Below, piece after piece: positions 5,447-43,149 of a DNA stretch of 64,000 nucleotides (its first letter is position 1; the number at the start of each line of letters is the position of its first letter). This DNA comes from an uncultured Planctomycetales bacterium. Lineage in GTDB: Bacteria > Omnitrophota > Gorgyraeia > Zapsychrales > Fredricksoniimonadaceae. The stretch spans positions 64,770-128,769 of the forward strand of contig CAZFNI010000002.1 in assembly GCA_964520655.1 (NCBI GenBank). Reading direction: 5' to 3'. The notes beneath the pieces were generated by a model. The model was given only the letters and a program-made list of their open reading frames with translations, had not been told where the DNA came from and made no database searches. Made by a program: the position numbers and the translations under genes.

Positions 5447-6822
5447 TGAATATCGAGATCATCACTAATCTGGTTTATATTGTCAGCGCCTGTTTATTCG
5501 CTTTTGGTTTAAAATTCTTAGGCTCACCGGTCACCGCTCGTCAGGGAAACACTCTCTCTGCTGCCGGTATGCTGTTGGCCGTTTTAGCCACTCTAGTGGG
5601 TAGTCATATCCTTACCTATCAATGGATCCTCATTGGTGTTGCCATTGGCGCTGCCTTGGGAACCTTGGTCGCCTATCGGGCCGCCATGACCCAAATGCCG
5701 GAGATGATCGCTCTCTTGCACGGTTGCGGCGCGTTGGCTTCCGTATTCGTTGATTGGGGCGCCTATCATGTTCATGGGGCTGAGAATTTAGTCGAATCGA
5801 TCTCGCTTTATTTATCCATTGTGATCGGCGGCTTGACCTTTACCGGCAGCGCGGTGGCCTGGGGTAAATTAAGTGAACGCATTTCCGGTAAAGCCATCCT
5901 TTTCTCCGGACAGCGCTTGGTCAACTTTTTGATCATCGCGGGTATCTTGATCTTAGGCGCCCTGTTTTTGATGGACCCGACCAAATATCCGATCTTCCTT
6001 GGCATTTTGGGACTCTCTTTCTTATTCGGTATTTTCTTAGTCATCCCCATCGGCGGCGCGGACATGCCGGTCGTTATCTCGGTATTAAACAGTTATTCCG
6101 GGGTTGTGGCCTGTACGACGGGGTTTGTTATCCACAACACGCTGTTGATCGTTGTTGGCGCGCTCGTTGGGGCTAACGGGATCATCTTGAGTATCATCAT
6201 GTGCAAAGCCATGAACCGCTCGATCGGTAACGTTATCTTTGGCGCCTTTAAAACGGTCGTGAAGAAAAAAGAATCCGGCGAGAAAAAAGAGGCTAAATCG
6301 ATCAACTTGGAAGACGCTTTCTTGGTCCTTGAGAATGCTAAGTCGGTCGTGGTTATTCCCGGTTATGGTCTGGCCGTCGCTCAAGCCCAGCACGCAGTGC
6401 GTGAACTTGGTGAACAATTAGAAAAGAACGGCTGCGACGTGAAATATGCCATCCACCCTGTGGCCGGACGTATGCCCGGACACATGAACGTTTTATTGGC
6501 CGAAGCGAATATTTCCTACGATCAGTTGATGGAAATGGATGCCGTTAATCCGTTAATGGAGAACACGGATGTGGCCATCATCATCGGGGCCAACGACGTT
6601 GTTAACCCGGCCTCGCGTCACGATAAATCAAGCCCCATCTACGGCATGCCGATCATCAATGCCGATAAAGCCAAAACGGTCTTTGTGCTCAAACGCTCCA
6701 TGGCGACCGGTTTTGCCGGTATCGAGAATGAACTGTTCTATTATGACAACTGCCGAATGATATTCGGTGATGCGAAACAGACGGTGCAGGCTTTAGTCGC
6801 GGAATTCAAAAGCGGGCATTGA
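5446..6822 (+). CDS. pntB: NAD(P) transhydrogenase subunit beta
   Basis: 458 aa; N-terminal multi-TM plus C-terminal NADP(H)-binding domain (GYGLAVAQAQ). Confidence 0.9.
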   Translation: MNIEIITNLVYIVSACLFAFGLKFLGSPVTARQGNTLSAAGMLLAVLATLVGSHILTYQWILIGVAIGAALGTLVAYRAAMTQMPEMIALLHGCGALASVFVDWGAYHVHGAENLVESISLYLSIVIGGLTFTGSAVAWGKLSERISGKAILFSGQRLVNFLIIAGILILGALFLMDPTKYPIFLGILGLSFLFGIFLVIPIGGADMPVVISVLNSYSGVVACTTGFVIHNTLLIVVGALVGANGIILSIIMCKAMNRSIGNVIFGAFKTVVKKKESGEKKEAKSINLEDAFLVLENAKSVVVIPGYGLAVAQAQHAVRELGEQLEKNGCDVKYAIHPVAGRMPGHMNVLLAEANISYDQLMEMDAVNPLMENTDVAIIIGANDVVNPASRHDKSSPIYGMPIINADKAKTVFVLKRSMATGFAGIENELFYYDNCRMIFGDAKQTVQALVAEFKSGH

Positions 6823-8207: not shown

Positions 8208-9602
<1,395 letters not shown>

Positions 9603-35032: not shown

Positions 35033-36421
35033 TTAACACTTCTCGCCCCTTAAAACATGGGGCGTGGCCTCAGTGATGCGGACTTTTAAAAGAGTGCCGA
35101 TAGGGTGTCCCTGGGTGGAAAGAACGACAAGCTTGCCTCCATCCGTTCTGCCGACACTATGCAGATGAGCCTTCTCGCCTGTGGCCGGCTCGATCAAGAT
35201 GGTCAACACTTGACCGATATGAGCTCTGTTCTTTTTAAGAGTGATCTCTTTTTGAATATCATTGAGCTGCATGATGCGCTCTGTTTTCTTTTCTTCGCTC
35301 ACATCATCGGGATATTTCTTGGAGGCAATGGTGCCTTTGCGCTCGGAATATTTGAACATGAACGCGGAATCGAATTCCACGGTCTTGATCACATCGATTG
35401 TATCCTTAAACTCTTCATCTGTTTCGGTCGGGAAACCAACGATCACGTCCGTTGACAGCACAAGTCCTGGGATGCGTTTGCGCATTTTATCGACCAAGGA
35501 CAAAAAATCCGACTTGGTGTAGGTGCGGCTCATCAGATCAAGGACACGGTCATTGCCCGCCTGTAAGGGCATGTGCACCTGTTTGCAGATCTTGGGATTA
35601 TTGGCCATCAGATCAATGAATTTATCCGGAAAATCTTTGGGGTGCGGTGAGGTAAAACGCACGCGTTCAATCCCCGAAACAAGGCTTACCACTTCCATCA
35701 GATCGGCGAAATCTTTATCCTCGTGGCGATAAGAATTTACGTTCTGACCAAGCAAAGTCACCTGCTTAAATCCCTCCGCCGCCAACTGCTTGACCTCTTC
35801 GACCACATTTTCAACAGAACGGCTGCGTTCCCGGCCACGGGTATAGGGCACAACGCAAAACGTGCAAAAATTATTGCACCCGCGCATGACCGCGATCCAG
35901 GCATTGATCCCTTCCTTGCGGCTAGGGGTTATGTCCGCATAGGTCTCGAATTCAGAAAGGGTGACATCAAATGGCTTCTCGCCAGAACCTGCAGCTTCAC
36001 TGATCAACTCCGGAAGACGTTTATAACTGTCCGGCCCCGCGATAAAATCCACGCGCATGCTGCGGTCTTCAAAGATCTCCTGACGCAGATTGGTCGCCAT
36101 GCACCCCAAGATCCCAATGAGCACAGGACGACCATTGCGTTCATGACGAATAGAATGCACCCGCCCATAGACCTTACGGTGCGCATTCTCACGGATGGCG
36201 CAGGTGTTAAGCATCACAATGTCGGCAACTTCTTCAGAAGAAACGAACTCATAATTGGCCTTGCGCAGGATAGAGCGCACCAGCTCCGAGTCGTATTCGT
36301 TCATCTGACATCCGTAGGTCTCCAATAGCACGCGCTTTCCTGCCGACGAGGCAGGGAGTTTCTGCTCTGGATTCCCGACGGTGTTGTCGTTTGTTGCGCT
36401 ATGTTCGACGTGTTGCTCCAT
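35033..36421 (-). CDS. miaB: tRNA-i6A37 methylthiotransferase
   Basis: ETYGCQMNEYDSE MTTase N-domain, radical-SAM CxxxCxxC, TRAM domain; N-terminal start ambiguous and overlapped by recombinase gene. Confidence 0.9.
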   Translation of the reverse strand: MEQHVEHSATNDNTVGNPEQKLPASSAGKRVLLETYGCQMNEYDSELVRSILRKANYEFVSSEEVADIVMLNTCAIRENAHRKVYGRVHSIRHERNGRPVLIGILGCMATNLRQEIFEDRSMRVDFIAGPDSYKRLPELISEAAGSGEKPFDVTLSEFETYADITPSRKEGINAWIAVMRGCNNFCTFCVVPYTRGRERSRSVENVVEEVKQLAAEGFKQVTLLGQNVNSYRHEDKDFADLMEVVSLVSGIERVRFTSPHPKDFPDKFIDLMANNPKICKQVHMPLQAGNDRVLDLMSRTYTKSDFLSLVDKMRKRIPGLVLSTDVIVGFPTETDEEFKDTIDVIKTVEFDSAFMFKYSERKGTIASKKYPDDVSEEKKTERIMQLNDIQKEITLKKNRAHIGQVLTILIEPATGEKAHLHSVGRTDGGKLVVLSTQGHPIGTLLKVRITEATPHVLRGEKC

Positions 36422-38001
36422 TTGATTCCTTCTTCGTAACATGTTTGCCACGGTTCATTTAATTCAAACGTGACAATCTCTTGATTTTGAATGTAAATCG
36501 ATTTAAAAATAATCCTCATAAACGTTTTTATGAGGAAATCCATCTGCTCACTATCCGGCGCTTTTCTTAAATGTAAAAGAAAATCCTGTGTTGCCCTTGT
36601 CAGATTGATCGAATTGCGTTTATCTAAAATCTTTAACTGTACACCTTTGATATCCTGCTTTAATTTCTTTTCTTCATTACGCAACAATTCCGCGCGATCT
36701 TTATAAATTTCAAGGTTGATGCTATCCTGCGCAAAGACTTCATACAAGCCTTTTTGTTTCTCGAGATTCTTGTTCAGTAATTTTGTTAATCCCTCCAACT
36801 CATCTAAAAAAATCTGCTCGGGCTGAGACGCATTGAGTTTGATCATGTCCCCGAATTCTTCTAGGACATGCAGGTTCTGGCATACCACATTAACGATGTC
36901 CCAAACCTGTTTGCCAATCGCATCCGCGGAAACGCTGGCATTGTCGCATTTCAAATATGAAACGCCTTTGGATGAACAGCGATACCACGGATGTTTAACC
37001 TTGGTGCGATGATTCGAAATAGACATAATACCACGAAAATTGCCATTGCACACTTTACATTTTAGCACACCCGAAAAATGATAGTTGTTGTTTTTAAACT
37101 TCACAACAGCATTCGTGCGATTACGTTTAAGTAAGACCGATGCTTCATCAAACTGCTTTTGAGTAATAATTGGTTCATGGACATTCGGCACCTCAACAAT
37201 TTTAGAAGGATCGTTGGCCACATATTTATAAGTTTTACCCTCTCCATCTTTTGTTTTAGCTCTTGGATCATAACGATGCCGGTTCCACACTAATGTACCC
37301 AAGTATACTTTACTTTTAAGAATCGTGCCGATGAATTTGGTGTAAAACTTACCGCCTTGGCGGGAAGATGTTCCAAGCCGATAAAAATGTCCGGCGATTT
37401 GCGAAGTGCTTTGGCCACTGATATAGCGATCATAAATTTCACGGACAATTTTTGCTTCTGGTTCATGTATTTCGAGCTTTTTAATGTCTTTGTTATAACG
37501 ATAACCATACGGTGCATAACGTGCCCCTTGCCAGTGACCTTTCTTAACACCCACCAGCATTCCCGGAAAAACACGTTCTACTAAACGGTTTCGTTCAAAC
37601 TCTGCGCAACTTCCCAACATTTGAATGGCCATCTTTCCGGCGCTGGATGTTGTGTCAAAAGGTTCGGTTGCGGATTTATAACCGACACCAAGAGAATCAA
37701 ATTCTTCCAAAAGTCCCAAGAGATCTTTTAAACGACGGCTTAAACGGTCTTGCTTATACACCATGACCAAATCAAACTGTTTATTACGCGCATCAAAAAG
37801 AAGCCTCTGCAAAGCAGGCCGATCCATATTCCCACCGGAATAGCCATCATCCATGTAGACGTCTCTGCCGGGAATACTGCAAAAAACCTCCCAGCCAAAG
37901 TTTTGCGCGTATTGCAACAAAAACGTGCGTTGCACCTCCAGCGAAAAACCTTCGCGGGCTTGATCCTCTGTGCTAACTCTTGTATATAGGGCGACTTTCA
38001 T
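36301..38001 (-). CDS. large serine recombinase (resolvase-N catalytic domain + recombinase domain + zinc ribbon + coiled coil)
   Basis: YTRVSTEDQ catalytic-Ser motif, recombinase domain, CKVCNG...C zinc ribbon; 566 aa. Confidence 0.9.
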   Translation of the reverse strand: MKVALYTRVSTEDQAREGFSLEVQRTFLLQYAQNFGWEVFCSIPGRDVYMDDGYSGGNMDRPALQRLLFDARNKQFDLVMVYKQDRLSRRLKDLLGLLEEFDSLGVGYKSATEPFDTTSSAGKMAIQMLGSCAEFERNRLVERVFPGMLVGVKKGHWQGARYAPYGYRYNKDIKKLEIHEPEAKIVREIYDRYISGQSTSQIAGHFYRLGTSSRQGGKFYTKFIGTILKSKVYLGTLVWNRHRYDPRAKTKDGEGKTYKYVANDPSKIVEVPNVHEPIITQKQFDEASVLLKRNRTNAVVKFKNNNYHFSGVLKCKVCNGNFRGIMSISNHRTKVKHPWYRCSSKGVSYLKCDNASVSADAIGKQVWDIVNVVCQNLHVLEEFGDMIKLNASQPEQIFLDELEGLTKLLNKNLEKQKGLYEVFAQDSINLEIYKDRAELLRNEEKKLKQDIKGVQLKILDKRNSINLTRATQDFLLHLRKAPDSEQMDFLIKTFMRIIFKSIYIQNQEIVTFELNEPWQTCYEEGIKWSNTSNIAQQTTTPSGIQSRNSLPRRQESACYWRPTDVR

Positions 38002-38039: not shown

Positions 38040-38255
38040 TTATTCAAAGGCTTCTTGGCCTTCTTTTGCTTTTAACTGTCTTGCCGAATGGGTTGATAAA
38101 AACATCTTGGTCAACGTTTCAATGCCATCATAAAACGACTTTCGCGCTTGCGCGATTTCGCCCGCAGAGAGTCCTTTGGCTTTTAGCTTTTCCTCCAAAG
38201 ATTCCCAGCCGCGGGGTTCTTTATGGCCTAAATTTGACGTTGTTTCCGTAATCAT
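38040..38255 (-). CDS. hypothetical small protein (71 aa) of the element
   Basis: ORF only. Confidence 0.3.
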   Translation of the reverse strand: MITETTSNLGHKEPRGWESLEEKLKAKGLSAGEIAQARKSFYDGIETLTKMFLSTHSARQLKAKEGQEAFE

Positions 38256-38487: not shown

Positions 38488-38774
38488 TGTGAGGCTAAAA
38501 TCCCCATCCTTACACCTTGCCTTTCCCACTCCTTTTTTACCCGTCGTGTGAGCTCTTTCTTTTATTTTTTATTACTTAAGAAAATTAGCCTCACACAGCT
38601 CACACTTTCACTTAACCAATTGTGTTTTAATCACTTAACCATGTGAGCAAGGCTGTGAGTTGAGCGTGAGCAAGAATTTCTACTCACACTTTAGAATGGC
38701 CTTTTCTCAAAAAGACTGTGAGTTGACTCATCTTCATCACCGTTGCTCACGCCCTGCTCACAGTCCACCTCACA
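38488..38774. repeat. iteron-like array: ~12 copies of TGTGAG / CTCACA in both orientations, with adjacent AT-rich stretch (38556-38590)
   Basis: motifs located at 38488, 38547, 38590, 38599, 38643, 38655, 38667, 38683, 38717, 38746, 38757, 38769; overlaps 3' end of Prim-Pol gene. Confidence 0.6.
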
Positions 38775-41054
38775 GGCCTTTTTGTCAATTTTACGCAAAA
38801 CAAAAAGACGCCTTCCTGTCCCGGCCTCCCGTTTGGGTAACCGGATGACATCAATCCCTGTGCTACGCATGACCGGAGCAATTCTCATTAATTCACTCGA
38901 TAACCAGCGGGGTGTATTGGGGATTGTTTTATCTTTTGTTCCTTCCGGGGTGATTATGGCCAATAACTCCGCCGCTGACCCTGACCATTCTCCATTATTG
39001 GTCATGACCAAAGTTGTTAACCGTCTGACCAAGGGGCTCTCCTCCGCCGTATTTTCCCATTTATGGTCAACCGACTCTTTGTAATTACTCAAAAATTCCT
39101 GACGAGAAAATCCAAGTTCATCCGCAAGTGCCATGCCCCACCGCACATAGTCAGCCATTCGGAATTTTTCATGACCAGTGACACTGTTCACATGATTCAT
39201 GGCTTTTGAAATAGCCGTAAAGAATCCACCGAGAATTCCCGGCAGAGCATTTTTCCATTCCTCGTTAATCTGCCCCTCGGAACGTCCATCTTTTAAAATC
39301 GGAATATCGAAGAGGATGGAACGATCCAGTAAATCCGGCCGCCACATCAAGCTGCCGATGCCATTGATGACAAAACAGCGGCGATAGGACCGGATAAATT
39401 CATCATCATTGGTATAAAGGCTGCGTTTCATGTCGCCCTCGCCGGTAACACCACGGCAGAGAAAATCGCTGAACCACTCAATAATTTTGGAAAGATTATC
39501 GAACGCACTCACCCAATGTTTGTCCGCTGTCATTTGTGCTTGTTCGAGGTCCTTGGGCGATGAGATTAACTCAACTTTGGAAGGATCAACCAGCCTTTTG
39601 ATCGCGCGGCTGTTGTAGGATTTCCCACTTCCCTGTTCACCGTTTTGGCTGACGATCACATGAGGAATATTGGGAATAAAATAGGTGGCCGTAGTCACAA
39701 TAAAAAGACATTGGTCATCCTCGTTGAGATTACAAAACCGGAGAATGTCTTTCGGATCGCCACCTAATACCGGCATGACTTGTTCATTTTGGTGACTATA
39801 ACGACGGAAAATAGGCGGCAGATAAATGATCTCCCATCCGTTTGGCGTAATGCGTACACCTCGCCAATCTGGAGTCGTTAAGTCGAAATAAATCGCTCCA
39901 CCGTAATGACCCACACGGTTAAAAAGCTCGATTTGCCGTGAGTCTTCACATTTGGCTTCCAACTGAATGATGGCCTGATTAATGGATTCGCTATTGGGCG
40001 GGGTTTTGTGTCTGGCGCGATAGCCTTTCGCTATCCAGTTGCGGAATCTTGTACTTTTGGTCTGACAAACTTCCGAATGCTTATCAATCGGCAAGACCAC
40101 ATAGAAGCTTCCTTGCTGGTCGCGAAAAGTATCTTTGATGATCTCTTCGCATTCTTTTGTGATGATTTCGCCTTGAGAAACTTTTTGTTTGGTTGGAGTA
40201 AAAACTTCATCGCAACCGCTGACTGCCTCATCGATTACGCCCTGACCGTAGGTCCGGCCATCGGCATAATGTTTTGTGTCCCATTTTTCCCTGAATAATT
40301 TGGATTGCCGGAAGATGGAATCCATGAGCGCCGGGTTTCGCCCCGTCCAAAATGCTAATTTGCCGCATAATGCTAGATCCGCTTCGCTTTGTGAACTGTA
40401 ATGACCTTCCCACTCTCCGCTAAAAAGCTGATTAAACTTATCGGCGTCTTTACTTTGAGCAATAGCTTCTAAGATTTCTTCAACACTTCGAGGCTTTTTC
40501 TTTTGTTTTTTGGTCTTTGGTTTGGAGGAGTTTTCTTCGATTAATTTGTTTAAACCCTCGCTTTGCTCTTCGATAACCGCAGGGTATTCTTCCAATCGAT
40601 TCCCTGTAAACGTAAAAAATCGACCATTGGTATAAATTTCTATTTTGGATTTTTTGATAGCGCGGCTGATTTCTCCTTTACAGATTACATGTACGCCCGT
40701 GCCGCTAGGTGAGAGTTCCGAATATGAACCAAGCCGTTTGAGGATTTCAATAGTATGAGATGCGATAATGCCATTCTTAACACAATTATCTAAATCAACG
40801 CCGACATACGGCGGTTGAAATACAAGCCCAATGGCATCGTAATTGCGCTGAATGGATAAATCTAAGGCATTCTCAAAATCAGTCCATGTGGAAGGGTCGT
40901 TGGACTTGGCACATTCGCCGGTTAAGGCGTTCATGGGGATTTTATCGGTCTTGCCTGGCCGGTCTTTACTGGGAACAATCTTGCACCCGACCCAATTGGG
41001 GAGTTTCTTTAATTCATCGGGCACATTGTTAATCAATTTCTGATAATCGATCAT
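38691..41054 (-). CDS. replication protein: bifunctional DNA primase/polymerase (Prim-Pol) N-domain + PriCT_1-like domain + C-terminal P-loop NTPase (SF3/D5-like)
   Basis: Prim-Pol N-terminus, LALCGKLAFWTGRNPALMDSIFRQSKLFREKWD (PriCT-like), Walker A GEQGSGKSY. Confidence 0.8.
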   Translation of the reverse strand: MIDYQKLINNVPDELKKLPNWVGCKIVPSKDRPGKTDKIPMNALTGECAKSNDPSTWTDFENALDLSIQRNYDAIGLVFQPPYVGVDLDNCVKNGIIASHTIEILKRLGSYSELSPSGTGVHVICKGEISRAIKKSKIEIYTNGRFFTFTGNRLEEYPAVIEEQSEGLNKLIEENSSKPKTKKQKKKPRSVEEILEAIAQSKDADKFNQLFSGEWEGHYSSQSEADLALCGKLAFWTGRNPALMDSIFRQSKLFREKWDTKHYADGRTYGQGVIDEAVSGCDEVFTPTKQKVSQGEIITKECEEIIKDTFRDQQGSFYVVLPIDKHSEVCQTKSTRFRNWIAKGYRARHKTPPNSESINQAIIQLEAKCEDSRQIELFNRVGHYGGAIYFDLTTPDWRGVRITPNGWEIIYLPPIFRRYSHQNEQVMPVLGGDPKDILRFCNLNEDDQCLFIVTTATYFIPNIPHVIVSQNGEQGSGKSYNSRAIKRLVDPSKVELISSPKDLEQAQMTADKHWVSAFDNLSKIIEWFSDFLCRGVTGEGDMKRSLYTNDDEFIRSYRRCFVINGIGSLMWRPDLLDRSILFDIPILKDGRSEGQINEEWKNALPGILGGFFTAISKAMNHVNSVTGHEKFRMADYVRWGMALADELGFSRQEFLSNYKESVDHKWENTAEESPLVRRLTTLVMTNNGEWSGSAAELLAIITPEGTKDKTIPNTPRWLSSELMRIAPVMRSTGIDVIRLPKREAGTGRRLFVLRKIDKKACEVDCEQGVSNGDEDESTHSLFEKRPF

Positions 41055-41349
41055 GAGTTGTTCCTTCCATCTTCTTGACGTTCTCAATCAATTTTTCATA
41101 GTAACTGTTGACTTGATTTTCAATCTCATCAGCGACCGGTTTATGAATCGGTTTAAAACAATGAACTCTTAGTCCCGTGACTAAATACCTCACTGGATAA
41201 ACCAGTCTGTATCCGGGCTGATCGATGCGCGTGTAGATGGCCACATCGCCGACAAAGAACGAATCATTAAGGACAAATGAAGCAAACGCCACCAATCCCT
41301 TATTGGGTCTCACCGGCACGATTTGAATTTCTGTTAACTTGATCGTCAT
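41029..41349 (-). CDS. SpoVG-like nucleic-acid-binding protein
   Basis: IQIVPVRPNKGLVAFASFVLNDSFFVGDVAIY...PGYRLVYPVR aligns with SpoVG core. Confidence 0.55.
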   Translation of the reverse strand: MTIKLTEIQIVPVRPNKGLVAFASFVLNDSFFVGDVAIYTRIDQPGYRLVYPVRYLVTGLRVHCFKPIHKPVADEIENQVNSYYEKLIENVKKMEGTTHDRLSEID

Positions 41350-41504
41350 CAATTTTTCCTCTCTATAAAATAAAAAATCCCGTGCAATAAGTTTCATTAC
41401 ACAGGATAGCAAAACCAAAAATTTATGGTATTTACTGCAACAGGCTGGAATTATACCGATTTCAGTCTACTGAATGCCTTTTAGAAAAAGACGTTTCAGT
41501 ATAG

Positions 41505-42563
41505 TCAACCCTTCTTTCTGGGCTTTGATGGAGGTTTTTTAACTTTCATCTCCTTAAGATATTTCCTCCATACTGCCATGTCTTGCCGTTTTTTGTGCTT
41601 CACCTTCTCTTGATATCGTTGATAGTACGTTTTGTTTCGTGCGCTCTTACCGCAGTCTTTCCCTTCACTTAATAATGAGCAGTATTTCTTCTTCTCATCA
41701 AAAACAAAAGCATTACCGCAAGACGCGCATCTTGAAATAATCTTTTTGTGATACAAATCATCAAGCATGTCATTGAGAAATGAAAAGCAGAATCTCGCCA
41801 GAGGATCTTGTGACTCTGCCACGCTTTCGACAAAGGCGTAGAGCCCTTTGAGATATTGCTTGTCGATATCTCCACCATTAACAGCCCAATTACTTATCTG
41901 ACCCACCGCATCTAATAAACGGAAAAATTCTTTCTTGCTGATTCCGGCATATCCAAGCTCAAAACAGAGGGTGTCATAAAAATGACTAAACCACGCGTGA
42001 ATATCCTCTTTTAAAAAATGCACGCTTAAACCGAAATAGGAAGCCGCAAATGGATAAATACATGCGTGCTTTGCTTCGAATATGTGACCAGTCTTAGGCT
42101 CAACCTCGATGGCTGGAGCAATGGCCAGATCCACCAAAATCACATTCTGCTTTTTACTCAAATGTTGCTTTAGATAATCACTTTCAACAAGACCAAAATC
42201 TTTCAACTCGACCGTGATAGGTGAAGGTCGTTTCTGTCCATGGGCCAACAAAGACTCCATTGCTTGAAAGTCCCCTTTTGTTCTGCCTAAAATCTTCCCA
42301 AACCGGTACTCCTCCGGAGAAATAGCAACGCCTGTAATATCAAAAAATGGATTCACCAAAGCCAATAAGTAAAGATCATAATAAAATTCCGAGGATTTTT
42401 CGGAAGGACCAGTAACGCTATAAGGGAAACTTAATATCTGCCCGCGCACATGGTAATCTTTATATTTCGATGGACAGAAAACTTCTATGGGCTTGGGAAA
42501 TTTTCTAGCGTACGGATATTTATCAAGCGGCGCCTTAGGGTGGTAGATATAACTCTTCGTCAA
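41505..42563 (-). CDS. hypothetical protein (352 aa) with C-terminal Cys4 zinc-ribbon and basic tail
   Basis: CASCGN...C...C then K/R-rich tail; no family recognised. Confidence 0.5.
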   Translation of the reverse strand: MTKSYIYHPKAPLDKYPYARKFPKPIEVFCPSKYKDYHVRGQILSFPYSVTGPSEKSSEFYYDLYLLALVNPFFDITGVAISPEEYRFGKILGRTKGDFQAMESLLAHGQKRPSPITVELKDFGLVESDYLKQHLSKKQNVILVDLAIAPAIEVEPKTGHIFEAKHACIYPFAASYFGLSVHFLKEDIHAWFSHFYDTLCFELGYAGISKKEFFRLLDAVGQISNWAVNGGDIDKQYLKGLYAFVESVAESQDPLARFCFSFLNDMLDDLYHKKIISRCASCGNAFVFDEKKKYCSLLSEGKDCGKSARNKTYYQRYQEKVKHKKRQDMAVWRKYLKEMKVKKPPSKPRKKG

Positions 42564-42810
42564 ATTCTCCTCACTTTTTCAAACTTAAACACCTTCAAAT
42601 CATATCAAAAAAGTATCGATTATTCCAACTTCATACCAAATGTCATTTGTAACATAGGCATGTTACACTTTTTGACGATCAACAGGATAAGGCTCAACTA
42701 CGAAATTTGTTATTCCCGACGAGGCTTGGCTTTCGAAGATTAAAGGAAGCGTTTGATCTGCCTTTAGTAACGTAACATTCAAAAAAATACTTTTTTGCGA
42801 ACGGGCTGCC

Positions 42811-42856
42811 TTCGCCTCGCCCGACCCGCACCCGGCACCCCCCTCGGAAGGACCCA
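42811..42856. repeat. GC-rich ~45-bp direct repeat copy B
   Basis: TCGCCTCGCCCGACCCGCACCCGGCACCCCCCTCGGAAGGACCCAT; about 40/46 identical to copy A. Confidence 0.7.
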
Positions 42857-42957
42857 TCAAAAAGCTGCATAGCTGAGCACATCAACCCTGCCAGACCACC
42901 CCCAATCAGCTCATGGGAACGGTTACAATGATGGGAAGCACTAATTTGGGGGAATCA

Positions 42958-43149
42958 TAAAGCAGTATTGATCATATCAACCAACATCTGACCATCAAAC
43001 GGTTTTTGCAGAAAACCCACAGCTCCTACTTTCAAAGCACGCTCGGCGGCATTGTCCTGTTTCTCGGCAGAAATAAAAATAACGGGGCGTTTCAATCCAG
43101 AATCAAGAATTTTTTTCTCTTCATGTGAAAAATAATAAAATTTACAATT
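42958..43149 (-). pseudogene. remnant of response-regulator receiver domain (C-terminal ~60 aa only)
   Basis: minus-strand frame translates to ...KFYYFSHEEKKILDSGLKRPVIFISAEKQDNAAERALKVGAVGFLQKPFDGQMLVDMINTAL*, no start codon and no N-terminal Asp pocket. Confidence 0.4.

Follow-up and report, generated by a model that had tools for sequence, protein, structure and literature searches.

What is the role of a gene that leads a small mobile element and resembles no described protein family? The question is raised by a 64,000-nucleotide (nt) stretch of contig CAZFNI010000002.1 (assembly GCA_964520655.1, positions 64,770 to 128,769 of the forward strand; hereafter the window) from an uncultured bacterium placed in the Omnitrophota, in which five genes lie on the minus strand in the order X, SpoVG-like gene, primase-polymerase/helicase gene, Xis-like gene and serine recombinase gene. 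This arrangement is best read as an integrating, self-replicating element of about 6.5 kb, and small integrating replicons with primase, xis and int are an already known kind of element. How they stay silent and spread in uncultivated ultra-small bacteria such as the Omnitrophota is the wider question, and the family of X is the only conserved unknown in these elements of about five genes. We find that X is a real gene under purifying selection that belongs to no known family, and that it undergoes cassette-like allelic exchange between near-identical backbones. We tentatively take its product to be a resident nucleic-acid-binding control protein acting at a terminator-gated operon, a reading that is possible but short of probable. 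The gene and the C-terminal features of its product are located as follows.

41505–42563, minus: gene X in the open reading frame list, encoding a protein of 352 amino acids (aa) from an unclassified family; TTG start at 42563–42561, stop at 41505–41507
41652–41729, minus: Cys4 zinc ribbon of X, residues 279–304 (CASCGNAFVFDEKKKYCSLLSEGKDC), FCS/CGNR-like, from cysteine conservation and weak profile similarities
41508–41651, minus: basic C-terminal helix and tail of X, residues 305–352, with 19 of 48 residues Lys or Arg (40%) and an isoelectric point of 10.7

The reading frame of X runs uninterrupted through 352 amino acid codons. Its TTG start codon is preceded at a distance of four bases by GTGAGGAG, a GAGGAG-type ribosome-binding site, and close homologues share the same start residue. 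The ratio of nonsynonymous to synonymous substitution rates (dN/dS) is 0.27 against the homologue in locus L051, 0.10 against that in L001 and 0.17 against that in L002 (L numbers denote the loci compared). Because of these low ratios, the 207 family representatives described below and an AlphaFold2 model with a predicted local distance difference score (pLDDT) of 86.8 and a predicted template modelling score (pTM) of 0.80, X is more than a chance open reading frame. Its G+C content is 0.409, compared with 0.452 in the primase gene and 0.49–0.50 in host DNA.

An earlier note made from the window's sequence had called X an orphan with an aromatic-rich, unique N-terminal part of about 270 residues. 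The aromatic richness stands, Phe, Tyr and Trp making up 15.6% of residues 1–270, but neither the uniqueness nor the orphan status was borne out. A word-indexed search of 5.8 billion proteins retrieved only 10 close relatives, and the three relatives found in GTDB genomes were all in metagenome-assembled genomes (MAGs) of Candidatus Omnitrophota. When 1.84 billion cluster representatives were searched exhaustively with a profile, 207 matched at E≤1e-3. The 39 that reached E≤1e-30 were for the most part full-length proteins (340–400 aa), while the part shared by lower-scoring representatives was the C-terminal third only; a second profile search of the 5.8-billion-protein database added a single further member. 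Across 43 full-length members F29, Y37, C279, C282 and C304 are invariant, and R40, G41, Y62, L69, I142, P254, F258, C259, F262, L270 and C295 are kept in at least 90%. No His, Asp or Glu is invariant in these 43 sequences, which argues against X being a metal-dependent enzyme.

That X has no recognisable catalytic or structural family, as the same note stated, held up in every search. Scans of the X sequence alone against Pfam, NCBIfam, PHROGs and PADLOC returned sub-threshold zinc-finger matches only, scans of the 43 full-length and 67 more distant members gave nothing above threshold, and sequence searches of the PDB with the X protein and with the family profile gave no significant match. 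The remote-homology check on a predicted structure proposed there led to the same result, as Foldseek comparison of the model with 350,542 PDB chains and with BFVD found no match at E≤1e-3, the best being zinc-finger-sized pieces. PADLOC had no match for X or its neighbours, and the 43 members gave two chance-level matches (E>0.007). As for particular enzyme classes, the X members carry no conserved His/acidic motif of HUH/Rep initiators or relaxases and have no Pfam or PDB match of that kind, a single Tyr being all that is conserved of the relaxase-type set. The size of X, its zinc finger and its position at the element end prompted a comparison with TnpB/IscB-like proteins, in which no conserved acidic residues were seen that could form the RuvC D-E-D triad and no PDB chain was found by Foldseek at E≤1e-3. 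Nor does X contain a nuclease, a nucleoside triphosphatase (NTPase) or a membrane segment as an effector domain. No relatives of X were found in IMG/VR viral contigs, cultured phages or PLSDB plasmids. Literature searches combining SpoVG, primase, integrase and satellite found nothing, and a survey paper on the primase family makes no mention of an X-like neighbour. A paper on the Dehalococcoides element IME1 was set aside as a related system, since those elements measure 21–28 kb and are unrelated.

The ribbon cysteines are C279, C282, C295 and C304 with a spacing of CxxC-x12-C-x8-C (CASCGN-x10-C-x8-C); the earlier note had rightly reported a C-terminal Cys4 ribbon and basic tail, but its spacing of x17 and x6 has to be replaced by x10 and then x8. 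All four cysteines are invariant in the 67 more distant members, whose ribbon motif reads CxxCGxxFxYxxxKKYCSxxxEGRDCGKxARNKRYY, and the motif CGKxARNxRxY after the ribbon is kept across the family. Between the allelic types of X described below, the ribbon is the best-conserved segment (53–63% identity). The ribbon and basic tail are consistent with nucleic-acid binding by X, as had been suggested: both are real and form the best-conserved part of the family, and from them we infer binding itself.

The putative zinc ligands follow the FCS/MYM-or-SAP30 pattern C-x2-C...[FY]-C-S...C, here C279-x2-C282-x12-C295(S296)-x8-C304 with Y294-C295-S296, and X shares with FCS/MYM, SAP30 and CGNR fingers the extended pattern C-x2-C...[FY]-C-S...C-G-basic. 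However, these fingers cover about 30 of the 352 residues of X, the last cysteine of X lies 8 residues past the CS motif, and all scores are under the curated cutoffs. No significant FCS/MYM/SAP30 profile match was obtained, with zf-SAP30 scoring 15.7 bits (E 0.016) against a cutoff of 25, and the FCS-type similarities were weak (2kdp, E 0.39; the FCS finger of polyhomeotic-like 1, 2l8e, E 0.12 with the family profile). The C-G-K-S-A-R-N following the last ligand resembles the CGNR motif but is not identical to it, and just one of the 67 distant members matches the CGNR zinc finger (PF11706, E 0.0088). X itself does not match DUF6076 (PF19553), an uncharacterised bacterial family, the gathering score of 23.5 bits not being reached; 5 of the 43 and 2 of the 67 members match it weakly (best E 0.0036; P0047 13.9 bits), over profile positions 24–94 of 168, a span that corresponds to the helix and zinc ribbon. 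Judged from sequence, a relationship between X and DUF6076 is at best distant and confined to the C-terminal module. We found no paper mentioning DUF6076.

The AlphaFold2 model was built from an alignment of 43 sequences, a model from 11 sequences having been too poor for use (pLDDT 53). Its N-terminal part is predicted to form an antiparallel sheet (strands 26–34, 37–45, 59–70 and 141–154) with two helices, followed by a four-helix segment at 185–272, the ribbon at 276–300 and long basic helices at 304–316 and 318–338. F29, Y37, R40, G41 and Y62, which are invariant or nearly so, lie on the N-terminal strands.

The DNA flanking X carries candidate control signals on both sides.

42599–42628, minus: X promoter from the promoter scan, with −35 TTGGAA, an 18-nt spacer and an extended −10 TGATATGAT
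42648–42667, minus: palindrome TGTAACA-N6-TGTTACA, some 20 nt ahead of the −35 box, a candidate protein-binding site from sequence and alignments
41469–41500, minus: hairpin ACTGAA...TTCAGT directly 3' of the X stop codon, seen by alignment in type A and B X cassettes only
41366–41407, minus: terminator-like hairpin ATCCTGTGTAATG-loop-TATTGCACGGGAT with a T-run, from the terminator scan, in the gap between X and the SpoVG-like gene and about 17 nt before the ribosome-binding site of the latter

The extended −10 TTTTGnTATGAT, some 35 nt before X, is kept together with the ribosome-binding site GTGAGGA in 7 loci and also in L017 and L018. The half-sites of the palindrome are constant and its spacer variable among the window, L051, L017 and L018. 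On the other side of X, the terminator hairpin of 13–14 bp is near-invariant in 8 loci across all X types, and folding of the sequence between X and the SpoVG-like gene gives a z value of −4.1. A covariance model made from these copies of the hairpin has one match only in the 64-kb window, at this very site, and also finds the hairpin after X in the distant loci L012, L020, L028, L029, L033–35, L040 and L043. The alignment was fitted to the model itself and contains a small number of reverse-strand self-matches. In it, pairing holds for 94.6% of cells, against 33–48% in slid controls, and compensatory change is seen at 9 of 13 pairs (34 cells); none of 500 shuffles attained such values. By simple scan, a hairpin with a T-run follows X in 26 of 39 loci, compared with 35 of 498 random windows. 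Since this conserved terminator precedes the SpoVG-like gene and the promoter scan scored no promoter-like site between X and that gene (41350–41504), the downstream replication-excision genes appear to depend on read-through past the terminator. X had previously been described as the first gene of the element's operon; this is correct by position, but X is preceded by a conserved promoter of its own, and the next gene by a terminator hairpin that is likewise conserved.

X is exchanged between backbones. In the comparison of the window with L018, the X proteins are only 33–35% identical (dN 0.68, synonymous sites saturated) beside SpoVG-like proteins of 92–94% identity (dS 0.37), primases of 86–88% (dS 0.67) and upstream DNA with 77% nucleotide identity over 308 nt. 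In the comparison with L051, X is 95% identical (dS 0.09), the SpoVG-like protein 93–94% (dS 0.27), the primase 81% (dS 1.5) and the upstream DNA 96% over 114 nt. At least four deep allelic types were distinguished, namely A (window, L051 and L001), B (L002), C (L011) and D (L015–L018), and within one type the selection on X is purifying. X of L002 is 96% identical to that of the window over residues 1–24 and 36–57% thereafter, and this drop in identity indicates a recombination breakpoint after residue 24.

For a wider view of its surroundings, about 40 loci were collected with a narrower family alignment by homology to X alone, so the neighbours of X were not pre-selected. In each of them X opens an array of co-directional genes, and where the sequence suffices the array consists of X, a SpoVG-like or other small gene, a replication module, a small helix-turn-helix (HTH) gene and an integrase. 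The gene-neighbourhood check proposed in the earlier note thus came out in its favour, with X leading the replication genes in every locus with enough sequence. The replication modules vary (NrS-1-like, DnaG/Toprim, DUF5906, PrimPol, AEP plus UvrD, and DnaD-like plus DnaB), and the integrase is a tyrosine enzyme in some loci and a serine enzyme in others. The tyrosine-integrase versions lie directly after tRNA-Met(CAT), downstream of eno-divIC, and the serine version of the window lies at miaB. No direct repeat of the tRNA 3' end marking the far end of L001 was found. Just after tRNA-Met, the tyrosine-integrase elements (L001 9795–9890; L003 108–205; L002, L052 and L011) have a conserved terminator hairpin and then tandem GTGCTA[A/G]CAC-TGTGCTA[A/G]CAA sites, whose two copies change together, the variable base being A in L001 and G in L003, L002 and L052; these sites may be integrase arm sites or operators. 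L003 (1–3902) is a minimal element with no primase, made up of X, a 186-aa gene that contains three 18-nt iterons (1821–1917), an HTH_17 gene and a tyrosine integrase; beyond it lies cargo comprising AbiE, RadC and type I restriction. L052 (975–3984) carries a decaying copy, with only 327 aa of X left and a fusion of the SpoVG-like gene to a shortened primase (569 aa). In an Omnitrophota MAG, the eno region has a c-di-GMP-I riboswitch on its upstream side (L005 7897–8014).

The remaining genes and DNA features of the window's element are these.

41029–41349, minus: SpoVG-like gene with probable start MTIKLTE at 41349; Pfam SpoVG match at E 1.3e-6, just under the cutoff
38691–41087, minus: primase-polymerase/helicase of 798 aa with an NrS-1-like helix-bundle domain, of the phage/plasmid primase type by Pfam and PHROGs, with phage and plasmid relatives
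38480–38790, no strand: about 13 GTGAG[C/G/T] motifs in both orientations around an AT-rich stretch, by direct reading and inverted repeats I1 and I4
38040–38255, minus: Xis-like gene of 71 aa with a weak DUF1233 excisionase match; HTH_17 in the same slot in L001 and L003
36301–38001, minus: large serine recombinase (integrase) with Resolvase, Recombinase and Zn_ribbon_recom domains
42813–42857, minus: first copy of a conserved GC-rich DNA element (core GGGTCGGGCGAGGCG), located 5' of X and repeated directly over 45 nt with 91% identity
38426–38470, minus: GC-rich conserved DNA element, copy 2 of the direct repeat, upstream of the Xis-like gene

Proteins of the SpoVG type are DNA- and RNA-binding, and in Omnitrophota elements the SpoVG-like gene is the conserved partner of X. 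The repeat region takes in the 3' terminus of the primase-helicase gene and a short distance beyond, and holds four of the five exact TGTGAGC matches in the whole window. It is a probable replication origin, identified by pattern only, and the primase-helicase is the likely initiator, both by analogy with satellite phage P4 and the staphylococcal islands. At the other end of the element stands the large serine recombinase of an integrating element, with E-values of 2.5e-33, 2e-17 and 6e-9 for its Resolvase, Recombinase and zinc beta-ribbon domains. Because its reading frame ends inside the 5' region of host miaB, with an overlap of about 150 nt (36301–36451) that is also seen in L057, the attachment junction probably lies within the 3' end of the recombinase. 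At the left junction (42955–43124, minus), only the C-terminal 56 aa or so of a response-regulator receiver domain remain, directly after the stop codon (43152) of an ABC ATPase gene, as a truncated host gene; the matching response-regulator gene is full length (128 aa) in L058. The combination of integrase, primase/replicase and iteron origin that characterises P4-like satellites and phage-inducible chromosomal islands is present, with the origin known by pattern only. No gene for exploiting a helper (capsid remodelling, small terminase or interference) was recognised by PHROG or Pfam among the element's five genes, and no relatives were found in IMG/VR or among cultured phages.

The two GC-rich copies bracket X, the SpoVG-like gene and the primase. 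This G-tract element (core GGGTC-N-GGCGAGGCG, 45–88 nt) also occurs in L001 (14098–14143), L017 (4095–4140 and 9034–9076), L019 (7707–7785), L020 (14398–14483), L054 (10495–10509) and L060 (6012–6026), and recurs ahead of xis/int in many elements, its nucleotide identity reaching 85% even between elements whose proteins share only about 29%. It was rejected as a structured RNA, having no Rfam match and no covariation, and as an X-specific binding site, since it occurs in elements lacking X too. Elsewhere in the window (8630–8721, minus), ARAGORN predicts a tRNA-Pro(GGG) that is unusually long (92 nt), with the Rfam tRNA model silent at its gathering threshold.

How, then, might X act? As a control protein, X would bind nucleic acid via its conserved zinc ribbon and basic helix, with a second contact probably provided by the conserved aromatic/arginine face on the N-terminal beta-sheet. 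It would be transcribed from its own conserved sigma-70 promoter with extended −10, as predicted from sequence, and the transcript would then meet the covarying terminator hairpin ahead of the other four genes. While the element is integrated, X would be the main product, the replication-excision genes being expressed only past the terminator. X may act at this gate or at the promoter-proximal palindrome, either silencing the element or triggering its release in response to a signal, and its deep, swappable types may represent different signal, competitor or immunity specificities. The lead position of X speaks for this reading, as it holds despite differing primase types and both integrase classes. 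Two observations weigh against it. No candidate target co-varies with X type, and the backbone also exists without X: the gene is present in every element whose primase is at least 73% identical and absent from all four distinct elements with primases of 56–68% identity, a six-frame hidden Markov model search of these four loci finding nothing. Absence from most homologous elements, which the earlier note had named as grounds for refutation, is therefore a split matter, with a copy decaying in L052. About 700 elements with homologous primases were found. One of the four elements without X, represented by L057 and L058, is inserted between a response-regulator gene and miaB like that of the window; at 5950–6720 of L058, and in L057, about twelve iterons of about 55 nt (..GCATATATACGC..TAGGGG) and a DUF5659-like gene take the place of X and SpoVG, and in L059, another of the four, the X slot holds an unrelated 403-aa gene and then a similar hairpin. 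A relationship of X to the DUF5659-like replacement gene was rejected by hhalign.

Such variation is also what would be expected if X were accessory conflict cargo (defence, anti-defence or exclusion of competing elements or phages) in a variable edge slot, expressed moron-like while the element is integrated and outside the life cycle of the element, which we consider a close rival of the control-protein reading even though somewhat doubtful in itself. X has its own promoter and terminator, a G+C content below that of the primase gene and host, and a place at the attachment-site-proximal end of the element; it is present or absent among related backbones, its slot being taken by iterons with a DUF5659-like gene or by the 403-aa gene, and its cassettes, of deep allelic lineages, have been swapped within flanks that stay conserved. 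Defence cargo (AbiE, type I restriction-modification, TIR and ApeA) is found on elements of this kind. The features that define a moron, namely own promoter, own terminator, deviating G+C and variable presence, are therefore all found for X at the sequence level. By contrast, neither X nor its 43 members match PADLOC, X has none of the effector domains searched for, and no cultured phage, plasmid or IMG/VR contig was found to carry it. Furthermore, in the approximately 40 loci X never occurs outside its exact position and orientation before the replication module, and in close elements the slot always contains X and the SpoVG-like gene instead of a mixture of unrelated systems. The likeness to phage morons and the cargo hotspots of P4-like satellites, which extends to promoter and terminator, deviating G+C, presence/absence and exchange between flanks, thus ends at a slot that in close relatives always holds the same family, with X fixed in place and direction across unrelated backbones.

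Two further roles place X in replication or in transfer. As a replication accessory, X would serve as an origin- or single-strand-binding organiser or as a loader together with the SpoVG-like protein and the primase-helicase. Its place directly upstream of the replication genes in every case, its nucleic-acid-binding features and its pairing with the SpoVG-like protein agree with this, as does L003, where in the absence of a primase only X and the 186-aa gene accompany the three iterons. However, the iteron-like repeats and AT-rich stretch of the window are found far from X, where the primase-helicase gene ends, a conserved terminator stands between X and the replication genes, related primases occur in elements without X, and L029 already has a DnaD-like organiser and DnaB. 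X also lacks an NTPase or HUH/Rep-type motif, and a protein of 33% identity beside a primase of 86% is hard to square with a tight partnership, leaving this role quite unlikely. The iteron location, the lack of an invariant His, Asp or Glu and the intervening terminator make a role as initiator unlikely too, so that the novel initiator becomes the least likely of the three functions (initiator, regulator or accessory) that the earlier note had put forward. That X moves the excised element as a transfer or packaging protein (nucleoprotein, capsid-like protein or relaxase substitute) is highly improbable. Nothing else in the element is a candidate for its horizontal transfer, the fold of X has no known neighbour, and basic tails are common in nucleic-acid-packaging proteins; set against these are the lack of similarity to viral protein structures or PHROG families, the absence from IMG/VR, the lack of a relaxase-type Tyr/His/acidic set beyond a single Tyr, and the fact that one protein of 352 aa is too little for a particle.

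The control-protein reading has two parallels among known systems. The Stl master repressors of staphylococcal pathogenicity islands, or phage-inducible chromosomal islands, are likewise encoded by a resident gene of a small island with primase/replication, xis and int, exist as highly divergent alleles in similar islands, and combine a conserved nucleic-acid-binding part with a faster-evolving remainder. Stl proteins are HTH proteins transcribed divergently from the operon they repress, whereas X has a zinc ribbon and is co-directional with a terminator in between, and in the window's element no helper phage, packaging or interference genes were found. In satellite phage P4, immunity consists of premature transcription termination upstream of the alpha (primase-helicase) operon, with the CI RNA as effector. 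The parallel lies in a constitutive promoter followed by termination before the primase-helicase, and in iterons beside the primase-helicase gene; the differences are an effector that is a small RNA and not a 352-aa protein, the lack of any sequence similarity, and a window element that uses a serine recombinase and has no sid, psu or delta genes. X would accordingly belong to neither the Stl nor the P4-immunity family, the likeness being one of working principle only.

A bolder form of the control-protein reading, which we regard as unlikely, is that X founds a new fold family of RNA/DNA-binding switch proteins. The ribbon and helix would serve to recognise the 'GUAA...UUAC' terminator hairpin conserved after X across the family, and the rapidly diverging body would respond to a signal such as a helper phage, a competitor or the state of the host, gating read-through into the replication-excision-integration genes in this way. 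X would then mark an undescribed class of integrating replicons of 4–8 kb in the Omnitrophota and other uncultivated bacteria. Whichever role applies, X carries the evolutionary signature of a specificity or conflict gene, with deep alleles swapped between near-identical backbones, and may be used as a practical marker for such elements in metagenomes. X and the conserved terminator together offer a concrete, testable point of control over excision and replication. If X is cargo, it would be a candidate new defence or exclusion protein; if it is a switch, it would represent a novel kind of element regulator and add a new fold to those that bind nucleic acids.

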